From: Phycisphaerae bacterium
Lineage (GTDB): Bacteria > Planctomycetota > Phycisphaerae > UBA1845 > Fen-1342
Direction of reading: 5' to 3'
DNA length: 64,000 bases
Assembly: GCA_050115495.1 (NCBI GenBank)
Contig: JASFQK010000023.1
Location: 1-64,000 of the forward strand
Part shown: positions 1-5,842 of the stretch, piece by piece
How the letters are laid out: every line of letters begins with the position of its first letter
How positions within the stretch are numbered: the stretch's first letter is position 1
Made by a program: the position numbers and the translations under genes
The notes under the pieces: generated by a model
Databases searched by the model: none
What the model was told of the DNA's origin: nothing
The model's input: only the letters and a program-made list of their open reading frames with translations

Positions 1-48
1 AATCCGTCGCCGAACCGGAGAAGCTCATCGCAGCAGAGGACGAACACC

Positions 49-2691: not shown

Positions 2692-2880
2692 TCGGTATCT
2701 CCTGCTTTCCTGGACGGTGAACCCGTGGCCGACATCGAAATCGGCTAAACGTGATCAGGTTTCGGGTACGCCGATCGGGGCCGGAATGGCCCGCAGAAAC
2801 GTAACAGGGGGAGCATATGCGGAGTCGGCCGCCGGTGCAACGCAGGGCGTGTCGCCGGCGGCCGACGTGTTGAGGGCACG

Positions 2881-3923
2881 AAAAAAGCGACGTGAGGTTT
2901 GGAGCTCGCCGCGCCCTTCAGAGTATTCGGTTCCGCTGCTTGGCACCCGCCGTCACCGGCCGACGCCATCCTCTCGGAGTTGGCTGCCCGTTCAGAGTTT
3001 CACCTGCCGAAGTAGCGCCCGTATCGGTTAGACGCTCCCGCTATGCCGTTGGCCGTTTCCTCGGCTTTGCGGTTTTCCCTCGGGCAGGCCCGGAGGACAC
3101 AGTTAAGCGCCCACGCGAACCTCTCTTCGGGTTTCGCTCTCCGCCAGAGTATTACCCAGCGGACCCTAGTCGCCCGGCCGAAGCCGGCCGACTCCTCTCA
3201 TGGGCTTCCACATCCCTTCAGCACGCTCAGACTCGGAGGTCCACTTACCACGGGCTTGCCTCACCCGCTACGTTCCGCCCTCAGGGTTTGGTCACCCTCT
3301 CGGCGGCTTACTCCCTCCGAGCCCCAGCCGGTTTTCTTTCGCACCGGCGGCGCTCATGGGATTCACCCTTCGGAGCTTTCCCCTCTCACAAGGTATCCAC
3401 GCGTCTCCGCGAGGAAGGACCCACTTACCGTTTCTCCTGCCGTTTCTACCGGTGCCGAAGCACCGAGCCGGCCCGGCAGGCCGCGGTTTCTGGGCTTTGA
3501 CCCTTGCGAGAGTCCCTGGCGACCGGAGCGGGATTAGCGCTCCGACCACTGGCTGCTCCCATGGGTTTCACCCTTCCAGGGTTTTCCACCGGAAGCCTTG
3601 GCCAAGCTTTCGCCCGGCCTCCTCTCACGCGCTTGCCGAACCCGCCCGAAGACGGGCCCGCGGCGCCCCAGAGTCTCGATCAGCCTCCGGCTGGTCCCAC
3701 CCGCCATAACGGCAAGCCGCTACGGACGGCCAAGACAGCCCTCATAGGGTTTCCGCACCTGCTAAATCCCAAACATTCGGGGGCGCGCTCTCCGGGTTAT
3801 GTATTCACCTCAGACCGCGTCGTACATTGCTGCCGACCGACCAGCCTTCCTTGGAGAGCCCCGCTTCCCTGCCGGAGCTGCTGGGACTCGCTTCGGTGCC
3901 GAGCCCGCGACCTCATCGTCACA
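2881..3923 (-). ncRNA. Candidate large (~1,040 nt) structured non-coding RNA, family not identified
   Basis: Upstream sigma70 promoter. 5' GUGACG-A-UGAGGU (3922-3910) pairs with 3' ACCUCA-CGUCGC (2898-2887), followed by U6 (2886-2881). C(UUCG)G hairpins at 3656-3641, 3465-3450 and 3187-3174. About 10 copies of an AA(A)CYCY-Nx-RAGRG motif. No credible CDS. Confidence 0.8.
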
Positions 3924-3929
3924 AGAGTA

Positions 3930-3958
3930 AGGTTAGCACACGTTTAGCGTAAGGTCAA
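3930..3958 (-). promoter_or_regulatory. Sigma70-type promoter of the large ncRNA candidate
   Basis: Minus strand TTGACC (3958-3953), 17-nt spacer, TAACCT (3935-3930) with extended TG. The predicted start near 3923 coincides with the 5' strand of the terminal helix. Confidence 0.8.
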
Positions 3959-4138
3959 AAACGAGTTCGGGTATTGACAGTGTGTGAAATGCGCAGCGCG
4001 CAAGGCCACACTCGTAACTGACGGAAGCACCATGAGTAGGCGTCGATATATCGGACGGTTAAATCTATCGAAAAGACTTTCGCTGACATGTTATCCACAT
4101 GCTGTCCACTGATTGTGTTTTTGTGAAGATGCGGCGGG

Positions 4139-5443
4139 CTACAGGAGATTGGCGGCGAGCTCGGCCAGGGAGCTACGTTCACCCTTGCGCAACTCGATGT
4201 GCGCTGCGATCGGCTGGCTCCGAAACCGGTTCGCGAGGTGCGTGAAGCCGTTGCTCTCGGAGTCGACGTAGGGGTTATCGATCTGGTACGGATCGCCGGT
4301 GAGCACGACCTTCGCGTCCTGACCAATGCGGGTGATGATCGTCTTGACTTCGAGGGGGGTGAGGTTCTGGGCCTCGTCGATGACGACGTAGCGGCGGGCG
4401 ATGCTGCGGCCGCGGATGTAGGTGAGCGGCTGGATCTCCATCACGCCGGCGCGGAGCAGGCCGCCGCAGTCGGCGTGGCCCTTGATCGGGCCGCCGGTGT
4501 CCATGAGGAACTCGACCGTATCGACGACAGGCTTCATCCAGGGGGCAAGCTTGCTGCCGATGTCGCCGGGGAGATAGCCGAGGTCGCGACCGACGGGGAT
4601 GATCGGCCGGGCGACGAGGACGGCGCGGCAGCGCTTCTTGCGCAGGGTGATGTGCAGGGCGGCGGCGATGGCGAGCAGGGTCTTGCCGGTGCCCGCCTTG
4701 CCCATGAGCGTGACGAGCTGGATGTGCTCGTCGAGCAGGGCGTCGATGGCGAAGTATTGTTCCTTGTTGCGCGGGCGGATACCGCAGACGCCGGTCTCGG
4801 GGTCGTGCAGGGTGACGAGGCGGTGTTGGTCGGCGTCGTGGCGGGCCAGGGCGGAGCCGTGGCCGCCGTCCGCCGGGTGGAGCAGGACGTACTCGTTGGG
4901 CGACAGGTCGTCGTCGGGCCAGTCGAGGTGGCCGTCGCGGCGGAAGGTCTCGAACTGCTCGGACGTGATTTGGCGGTCGGTCTGGCCGGTGTAGACGTCC
5001 GAGAGCTGCACGTGGTCGGACTCGTAATCCTCGGCGCGGACGCCGACGGCGTCGGCCCGCACGCGGAGGTTGATGTCCTTGGTGACGACGACCACGGGGA
5101 CGTCGGGCTCGGTTTCGTGGATGCGGCGGGCGACGCGGAGGATCTCGGCGTCGGCGGAGCCGGTGTGGCGGTCGCTGATGGCCTCTTCCGGGGCGCAGTA
5201 GACGCGGAGCACGCCGCCGCTGTCGAGCGTCACGCCCGAGGCGAGGCTCTGGCCGTTGCGCAGGGCGTCGAGGACACGGACGACGGCGCGAGCGTTGTAG
5301 CCGCGGGCGGTCATTTCCTTCTTAAAACGGTCGATTTCGGTGATGACGCCGACGGGGATGATGACCGTGTTGTCGGCGAATTCGAAGACCGATTGGGGGT
5401 CGTGGAGGAGGACGTTGGCATCCAGGATGTAGTTCTTACGCAT
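4139..5443 (-). CDS. PhoH family protein with N-terminal PIN domain (PhoH2/YlaK-like ATPase)
   Basis: Start reassigned to ATG at 5443 (MRKNYILDANVLLHD), 434 aa. PIN motifs LDANV and TKDINLR, Walker A GKAGTGKT, GYLPG, YIRGRS, IDEAQN, GDPYQID. Confidence 0.92.
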   Translation of the reverse strand: MRKNYILDANVLLHDPQSVFEFADNTVIIPVGVITEIDRFKKEMTARGYNARAVVRVLDALRNGQSLASGVTLDSGGVLRVYCAPEEAISDRHTGSADAEILRVARRIHETEPDVPVVVVTKDINLRVRADAVGVRAEDYESDHVQLSDVYTGQTDRQITSEQFETFRRDGHLDWPDDDLSPNEYVLLHPADGGHGSALARHDADQHRLVTLHDPETGVCGIRPRNKEQYFAIDALLDEHIQLVTLMGKAGTGKTLLAIAAALHITLRKKRCRAVLVARPIIPVGRDLGYLPGDIGSKLAPWMKPVVDTVEFLMDTGGPIKGHADCGGLLRAGVMEIQPLTYIRGRSIARRYVVIDEAQNLTPLEVKTIITRIGQDAKVVLTGDPYQIDNPYVDSESNGFTHLANRFRSQPIAAHIELRKGERSSLAELAANLL

Positions 5444-5842
5444 GTCGCCGCCAGTGTAGCACGTGGTGGCACCGACGCCAGAGGCGATGGCGGCAGGCGC
5501 TCGGCGTCGGTGTGGGCGCTCGGCGGAGCACGCGTTGCCAATAGTCGTCGCCCTGCTGGCCGACGCCGCAAACAGTGATGCGCTGCAGCCAAGACCTCTC
5601 GTACAGCGAACGCAGGGATTGTGTAAGCCCGGATCCCGTGAGGAGTTCTCGGATCCGGCAGCAGTGAGCCATAAGCGCATTCACAGTAATTGTTTACGCC
5701 TGGCGCCTGGGATCAGTTGAGAAACATGGGTCGTATTTCGGTTATGTCTCAGACATGGTAGCGATACTGCGCCGCTCTGTTACAATGAGGCCAGCCTTTG
5801 GTTGTTGCACTTGTCCAGGATTTCATGAAGGAGGAAGCATCC

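Follow-up and report, generated by a model that had tools for sequence, protein, structure and literature searches.

A predicted ~1.04-kb structured non-coding RNA of Planctomycetota with a covarying terminal helix

To our knowledge, very few bacterial non-coding RNAs (ncRNAs) exceed 500 nucleotides (nt). OLE, GOLLD and ROOL each proved unexpected in architecture. OLE, the ornate, large, extremophilic RNA of Bacillota, is ~600 nt long and very abundant and acts with protein partners, while GOLLD and ROOL are mostly phage- or prophage-borne. Terminal helices close RNase P RNA and transfer-messenger RNA (tmRNA), ribosomal RNA (rRNA) precursors have processing stems, and CsrB-type RNAs carry many copies of one short module. 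Here we analyze 64,000 nt from a Phycisphaerae bacterium (positions 1 to 64,000 of contig JASFQK010000023.1, assembly GCA_050115495.1), referred to below as the window. It contains an ncRNA gene at 3922-2881 on the minus strand, whose predicted primary transcript of ~1,042 nt is larger than the known sizes of OLE, GOLLD and ROOL. We consider it very probable that this is a stand-alone, single-copy gene for a ~1.04-kb structured ncRNA, belonging to a family that is absent from Rfam 15. A preliminary description of the sequence had proposed just such a stand-alone large structured RNA, and its tests, as run here, refute nothing in that proposal.

Homologues, covariation and expression

Homologues were collected by searching one genome per species with a degenerate pattern derived from the best-conserved block. 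The pattern matched 109 stretches, 98 of which are also matched by a profile of the RNA. Among the 80 stretches with listed titles, the 69 with a profile match are all titled as Phycisphaerae, Phycisphaerales, Phycisphaeraceae, Planctomycetales, Planctomycetaceae, Planctomycetota or planctomycete metagenome-assembled genomes. The 11 of 109 stretches titled as non-planctomycetes have no profile match and were taken as chance; a covariance model built from the Domain IV alignment A1 (model R1) found nothing in five of these 11 genomes (0/5). The full-length RNA is present at 88 loci, of which 74 are non-redundant, with lengths of 1,032-1,169 nt and a mean pairwise identity of 64% (range 47-97%). 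In the source genome a BLAST search with the 1,078-nt stretch found a single copy. The base composition of the RNA is 37% G, 27% C, 21% A and 15% U.

A MAFFT alignment of 23 homologues with 250-nt flanks shows a column conservation of 0.62-0.91 from ~3936 to ~2896, dropping to 0.11-0.53 outside these borders. No open reading frame (ORF) is common to the 23 homologues, whose longest open frames vary both in length and in frame. By codon phase, variability is 0.209/0.214/0.232, hence without codon periodicity, and the indels are mostly of 1 nt (gap lengths modulo three: remainder 1, 779; remainder 2, 208; remainder 0, 98). The unshared ORFs, the flat phase variability and gap lengths that are mostly not multiples of three led us to reject a protein-coding gene. 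The plus strand carries ORFs of 202, 164, 169 and 147 amino acids (aa) over the RNA and, since no ORF is shared and variability is not codon-like, these are by-products of the high GC content. The ~1-kb region had been described at the outset as lacking a credible protein, and the test for codon-type conservation was indeed negative.

Folding of the 74 sequences with RNAalifold yielded a consensus of 311 pairs in 55 helices. As evidenced by two kinds of control, this fold exceeds chance: 90.2% of paired cells are canonical, whereas sliding the 3' partners by 1-3 columns leaves 36.8-42.5% and 100 shuffles give 77.6% (standard deviation 0.15), and 260 of the 311 pairs changed on both sides compared with 185 ± 5 (maximum 199) in the shuffles. 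Compensatory changes beyond slid and shuffled controls are the generic mark of a structured ncRNA. An energy-free ranking of ~583,000 column pairs by mutual information with average product correction agrees with the fold, with 42 predicted base pairs in the top 50 and 82 in the top 100; 147 of the 311 predicted pairs exceed the 99.9th percentile of this score. The top covarying pairs outside the fold give no convincing extra helix. G·U accounts for 9.6% of paired cells and A·C for 2.2%, which assigns the RNA to the minus strand, in agreement with the preliminary description, where the strand had been read from G-U pairs. The same description had pointed out three C(UUCG)G hairpins on this strand. 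All three are in the sequence; those at 3467-3448 and 3192-3169 coincide with the covarying helices H29 and H41, and the one at ~3653-3644 corresponds to H19, which is weak (68% paired) and belongs to a variable region with many indels.

Domain IV, the most conserved part, was analyzed separately in alignment A1 (73 sequences). Its 40 pairs are 98.2% paired and 22 of them show double changes; none of 500 shuffles scored as high on any of five measures, and slid controls were 33-47.5% paired. Compensatory changes occur elsewhere as well, for example in H07 (7/7 pairs), H09 (6/6) and H08 (5/6) of Domain I and in H50 (11/11), H42 (9/10) and H55 (11/12) of Domain V.

As to expression, contigs from RNA libraries cover the RNA. 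The stretch or part of it is present in 24 public sequencing runs, 21 of which are RNA libraries. We aligned three RNA runs (X2, X3 and X7; three studies, wetland 2020, possibly one campaign) and one DNA run, possibly the source; 21 other runs (shares 0.20-0.88) were not counted as support. Run X2 has exact contigs for 2892-3300 and 3357-3911, contigs of X3 tile 2916-3910, and the three RNA runs together cover 2892-3911, two of them exactly. The peak summed word depth within the RNA is 159 in X2, 50,838 in X3 and 479,208 in X7. In the DNA run, depth is flat at ~20.6 and the contig passes both borders of the RNA. In the flanking bins 1500-2839 and 3912-5500 word depth is 0-3 in the RNA runs compared with ~20 in the DNA run, a value that serves as a silent-stretch control only and says nothing on silence of the neighboring genes.

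No Rfam 15 family matches the 64-kb window at gathering score, OLE, GOLLD, ROOL, HEARO, raiA, ARRPOF and MISL included. A permissive scan of 2700-4200 gave best scores of 12-19.8 bits, all with E-values of at least 1.1 and thus at chance level. Likewise, in 20 diverse homologue loci (86.7 kb) the RNA itself is free of Rfam matches; the only ones, two transfer RNAs (tRNAs) and one group II intron, lie outside it. The tRNA genes are found just downstream of the RNA in locus L065 (2109-2291) and the intron (D1-D4-3, 61.7 bits) just downstream in locus L095 (3761-3977). A group II intron was rejected as an identity for the RNA itself: the only match is 29 nt to D1-D4-6 at 12 bits (E 1.1), the RNA is single-copy and there is no conserved reverse transcriptase ORF. 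RNase P RNA, tmRNA, signal recognition particle (SRP) RNA and 6S RNA were rejected as well, as the matches of the genome to these lie on other contigs: RNase P RNA on C15 (283.7 bits), tmRNA on C5 (169.1 bits), SRP RNA on C4 (51.3 bits) and a 6S RNA candidate at C30:61478-61662 (minus strand) whose 45.7 bits are just under the Rfam cut-off of 46.4.

The RNA matches nothing in a phage collection (50,697 records) or among plasmids (72,556), and phage or plasmid carriage was dismissed for lack of a match in either collection. One 2,489-nt IMG/VR contig carries the motif pattern of the RNA. We found no description of the RNA family in published full text outside subscription journals. The RNA appears to represent a new family among the very large structured RNAs, and no relation to a catalogued family was detected. 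The lack of rRNA, RNase P, tmRNA and group II signatures noted at first sight is mirrored in the Rfam results for the window and the homologue loci, and the suggestion of a possibly undescribed class stands after these and the literature negatives.

Promoter, transcript ends and domain architecture

The gene is framed by conserved signals (Table 1). The promoter predicted in the preliminary description, TTGACC-17-TAACCT with an extended TG, is present, and the pattern TTGnnn-16..18-TAnnnT lies at most 50 nt upstream of the terminal helix P1 in 62 of 74 homologues; in 56 of these 62 the distance from the end of the -10 element to the first base of P1 is 6-7 nt. A consensus scan called neither a promoter nor a terminator on the minus strand of the window. 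For the promoter this is because TAACCT fits TATAAT at only three of six positions, and support for both signals therefore comes from conservation.

P1 joins the two ends of the predicted transcript. Over the 74 homologues it is 88% canonical; sliding the 3' strand by 1-3 columns lowers this to 32-54%. Ten of its 11 pairs changed on both sides. The pairing of the first transcribed bases with a segment ~1 kb away, directly before U6, had been proposed from the single sequence together with a covariation check of this helix, and it is borne out by these compensatory changes. At least five T follow within 9 nt after P1 in all 74 homologues. Inspection of the alignment by eye revealed no local hairpin conserved ahead of the U-tract, which leaves the long-range P1 as the sole conserved stem next to it; the window alone could form GGCGA/UCGCU there. 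Because no conserved local hairpin was seen, we infer that P1 is the stem of an intrinsic terminator, which would be unusual. A strong inverted repeat at 2824-2866 (20-nt arms, 85% complementary, 3-nt loop) lies 15 nt past the U-tract and upstream of an acetyl-CoA synthetase gene (784-2691), and is a candidate second terminator or acs leader.

Contigs from the RNA libraries end at 3911 (X2) and 3910 (X3), and an adapter junction in X7 abuts 2897. These positions coincide with the inner end of P1 and weakly suggest trimming of the abundant form there; one X2 contig ends at 2892, inside P1. A transcript of ~1.04 kb from ~3923 to ~2881 had been predicted. Its body is covered by the RNA contigs, while its ends differ from those at which the contigs hint, ~3911 and ~2892-2897.

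Table 1 Features of the ncRNA gene and its upstream region (window coordinates).
Feature	Position	Strand	Details
Whole predicted primary transcript	2881..3922	-	Sharp conservation borders, homologue lengths, exact RNA-library contigs
Sigma-70-type promoter	3930..3958	-	-35 TTGACC 3958-3953, 17-nt spacer, extended TG 3938-3937, -10 TAACCT 3935-3930
P1, 5' strand	3911..3922	-	GUGACGAUGAGG; 11 pairs, 10 changed on both sides
P1, 3' strand	2887..2897	-	CCUCACGUCGC; partner of GUGACGAUGAGG, ~1 kb away
U6 tract	2881..2886	-	Directly 3' of P1; presumed terminator tail
Domain I	3755..3899	-	Closed by GCACC/GGUGC; helices H03-H11
Domain II	3571..3749	-	Closed by CCCU-AUG-AGGGC / ACCCU-GGA-AGGG; H12-H20
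Domain III	3365..3566	-	Closed by ACCC-AUG-GGAGC / GCUCC-GAA-GGGU; H21-H30
Domain IV	3213..3361	-	Closed by UCCC-AUG-AGCGC / GUGCU-GAA-GGGA; most conserved part
Domain V	2913..3205	-	Closed by GCCC-AUG-AGAG / CUCU-GAA-GGGC; nested sub-domains, H39-H55
Candidate operator	3973..3988	-	Degenerate palindrome copy UUCACACACUGUCAAU; consensus TTGACAGGCTGTCAA
Perfect DnaA box	4091..4099		TTATCCACA on the plus strand, TGTGGATAA read with the RNA; ~170 nt upstream of the predicted start

P1 encloses five domains, all meeting at one junction and joined by short purine linkers (GGAAA, UGAA and GAA) and by GUGGAA. Domains II-V share a closing module, with CCC-AUG-AG opening and CU-GAA-GGG closing each of them, and the direct-repeat families D1 and D2 tie the start of Domain III to the starts of domains IV and V. 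From these common closers and the repeat families linking the starts we infer that domains II-V arose by serial duplication. Domain II seems dispensable, as its interior (profile ~181-341) is missing in loci L034 and L089, where the nhmmer matches come in two pieces. Domain IV holds the invariant hairpin AGGGU-NNCCAA-ACCCU.

Ten 3x3 internal loops recur in the fold. In each, both outer oppositions set A against A or G against G, the only exchange between them is AA<->GG, and the middle position is free. Examples over the homologues are 43 GG/28 AA, 43 AA/26 GG, 48 GG/20 AA and 47 AA/26 GG. We know of no named motif that this homopurine module matches.

Distribution and genomic surroundings

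As an addition to what the single sequence had offered, the family is not private to the source organism: members are found in Phycisphaerales and, with a patchy distribution, in further classes of Planctomycetota. BLAST finds it in 29 of 40 relatives (30 of 41 including the source genome) and in 22 of 24 members of the same family, with identities of 68-78% over nearly the full length. The following counts come from samples scored under strict filters, in which 'not found' does not equal 'absent'. In a sample of the class, model R1 matched 11 of 150 genomes, all within the order of the source organism (f1 3/4, f2 5/8, f7 1/6, f6 1/1 and f5 1/1, by family), and none of 130 genomes from other families of the class. 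In a sample of the phylum it matched 19 of 150 genomes, all outside Phycisphaerae, with E-values of 1e-11 to 1e-25. The full-length profile covers 52-1073 and 54-1071 of its 1,080 positions in two loci from outside Phycisphaerae. A crude search for P1 and the U-tract in the loci of other classes gave clear results only for L143 and L200 (11/11 pairs each), with the rest unclear or negative.

L200 is the single match of R1 among 121 genomes from the phylum of a record titled Verrucomicrobiae. This copy (G337:C3:34691-34846) belongs to a near-complete RNA on a 73-kb contig, with P1 at 11/11 pairs and a U-tract, and may reflect a mis-binned contig, transfer or a wider range. Four genomes (G024, G236, G284 and G296) have two matches each to the RNA or to Domain IV, indicating paralogues in some lineages.

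Upstream of the promoter lies the DnaA box listed in Table 1; the 5.97-Mb genome has only 10 such perfect boxes, this one included. Among the 74 Phycisphaerales loci, 24 have a box with at most one mismatch upstream of the RNA, in 17 cases at the fixed distance of -184 to -199. Box density per kb is 0.82 in the upstream regions of the 74 loci, compared with 0.10 downstream and 0.013 within the RNA. Similarly, 11 of 18 loci from other classes have at least one box within 450 nt upstream, where the density is 2.07 per kb compared with 0.098 elsewhere. Aligned upstream regions of 72 homologues share the block TGACAnnnTGTCA ~25-30 nt before the -35 element. Conserved blocks were also observed within ~220 nt upstream of the promoter (window 4000-4110 and the corresponding regions of L001-L110): GTGCACA by the box, a run rich in A and T, the inverted repeat ACTTAC...GTAAGT and the palindromic TTGACAGGCTGTCAA. 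On sequence grounds, the upstream blocks suggest additional operators and a multi-input promoter.

A position of the RNA gene next to oriC was considered and rejected, since in genome G086 the GC skew keeps its negative sign to the left and right of the RNA over ±200 kb. In genome G168 the skew is flat and hence uninformative. A change of skew sign at ~4 kb in the window is unusable because only 4 kb lie to its left, and these hold minus-strand genes. No cluster of at least three DnaA boxes within 400 nt was found anywhere in the genome. The dnaA homologues are on contigs C1 and C3, away from the contig of the RNA; these two genes with a DnaA domain (C1:129372-129854 and C3:92358-92822) score 212 and 167 bits, and a perfect DnaA box at C3:93400 lies just upstream of the second.

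The co-oriented gene upstream (4139-5680, minus strand) encodes a 513-aa protein with PIN_4 and PhoH domains, a predicted RNase/ATPase of the PhoH2 type. As a conserved partner gene it was rejected: 31 of the 74 loci in Phycisphaerales have a co-oriented PIN-PhoH gene upstream, but none of the 20 in other classes do. Other neighbors vary and include an M29 peptidase, aminotransferases, an amidase and a sigma-54 activator.

Interpretation and comparison with known RNAs

The reading that we prefer, tentatively and at somewhat less than an even chance, is that of a scaffold or decoy which offers about ten loop copies to a protein partner and whose synthesis is tied to DnaA. The predicted transcript runs from the promoter to the U-tract, and its first 12 and last 11 structured bases form P1 round five independently folded domains. 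On the preferred reading the RNA would be stable and highly expressed, and its repeated homopurine loops would each dock one copy of the same protein partner. Synthesis of the RNA may respond to DnaA and two further upstream operators, hence to replication or growth state. P1 would also supply the intrinsic terminator stem, in which case the 5' end would have to meet the 3' end for termination, and might then serve as a processing stem.

Several observations weigh against this reading or limit it. The data do not indicate a protein partner, and the repeated loops would serve equally well for packing RNA against RNA; the neighboring genes are not conserved and none points to such a partner. Only the 24 of 74 Phycisphaerales loci mentioned above have a box with at most one mismatch, and the window has a single site. 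The alignment was made by MAFFT without structure refinement, so helices in indel-rich parts are weak (H04, H18, H19, H48 and H49). Expression is read from assembled contigs only, which puts strand, ends and level beyond their reach; the depth sums related organisms, and the three RNA runs may share one campaign. Several loci from other classes are without a U-tract near the projected 3' end in the crude search, and all carriers seen are metagenome-assembled genomes.

A somewhat less probable alternative is an RNA-only assembly, that is, a compact particle and perhaps a homo-oligomer in which the A·A/G·G oppositions and GNRA-like loops make tertiary or quaternary contacts. The RNA is large and multi-domain, with many GAAA-type loops and conserved purine-rich internal loops, and precedents exist: PMC12286853 describes homo-oligomers of OLE, ROOL and GOLLD held by A-minor contacts, kissing loops and an A-A base-paired bridge, with conserved A-A pairs serving as a contact in OLE. 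Against it, we noticed no conserved self-complementary loop when inspecting the hairpin loops by eye, without a systematic search, and the covarying pairs outside the fold offer no convincing extra helix. The RNA is also chromosomal, with no phage or plasmid match, unlike the phage-linked GOLLD and ROOL. That the ~1-kb transcript is instead a precursor, cleaved at P1 and the domain closers to yield a working P1-less core or domain-sized RNAs, is unlikely in our view. X2 and X3 contigs do stop at the inner end of P1 where the DNA contig continues, the X7 junction is placed correspondingly, and four domains are closed by one module; but contig ends are a weak hint, one X2 contig reaches inside P1, and the X2 contigs span V/IV and III/II/I, so that domains are joined in at least some molecules. 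Processing at P1 and the domain closers, to which we give a similarly low probability, would be compatible with the scaffold or decoy as well as with an RNA-only particle.

A large ribozyme with its conserved core in domains IV-V is quite improbable. Domain IV is the part kept across classes and has invariant nucleotides that are unpaired or in loops (CCAA, within the AGGGU/ACCCU hairpin loop, as well as a GAAA and an AACC), yet no Rfam ribozyme matches, and neither a substrate-like feature nor a linked gene was seen. Least credible of all, to the point of being negligible, is that the locus is no RNA gene and acts as an origin-proximal, DnaA-titrating DNA element or hides a protein gene. The DnaA boxes and AT-rich stretch upstream and the four plus-strand ORFs would fit, but compensatory changes with the observed G·U/A·C asymmetry fit only a folded minus-strand RNA, and the unshared ORFs, 1-nt indels and lack of codon periodicity speak against a protein. 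The missing skew switch at the RNA in G086 (G168 being flat) and the location of the dnaA homologues on other contigs argue against an origin. A bolder reading is that of a housekeeping RNA machine across Planctomycetota, a ten-loop particle with five domains round a six-way junction, RNA-only or with one repeated protein, that would be DnaA-gated and end at a folding-dependent terminator. We regard this broader picture as speculative and rather doubtful.

The comparative support for the structure is unusually strong, and the host phylum is environmentally common and poorly studied, with wetland RNA-library contigs at high summed depth. Experimental handles are provided by the covarying homopurine loop module, the terminal helix abutting the terminator and the conserved DnaA box. 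A cultured carrier, if one is found, would open structure, partners and phenotype to direct tests, and a covariance model of the family would label what is now a blank 1-kb gap in carrier planctomycete genomes.

Among known RNAs, OLE resembles the planctomycete RNA in being chromosomal, single-copy, large and highly structured. The planctomycete RNA differs in its length of ~1,040 nt, its phylum, the absence of an Rfam match and of a conserved partner gene beside it, and in its five-domain closed-circle layout and repeated 3x3 module, which OLE is not known to have. GOLLD and ROOL are likewise very large, ornate, multi-domain bacterial RNAs supported by covariation, and their self-assembly is shown in PMC12286853. 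In contrast, the planctomycete RNA is chromosomal, is single-copy in the source genome and has no Rfam, phage or plasmid match. With RNase P RNA, tmRNA and rRNA precursors it shares a long-range helix that joins both transcript ends, but the 3' strand of its terminal helix abuts a U-tract in all 74 homologues, which is not known from those RNAs. CsrB/RsmZ, 6S RNA and Ms1 are also stand-alone ncRNAs, and the repeated module of the CsrB type follows the logic proposed here for the planctomycete RNA. Its module is, however, a 3x3 homopurine internal loop and not a GGA hairpin loop, and the RNA is 3-5 times longer than these decoys.

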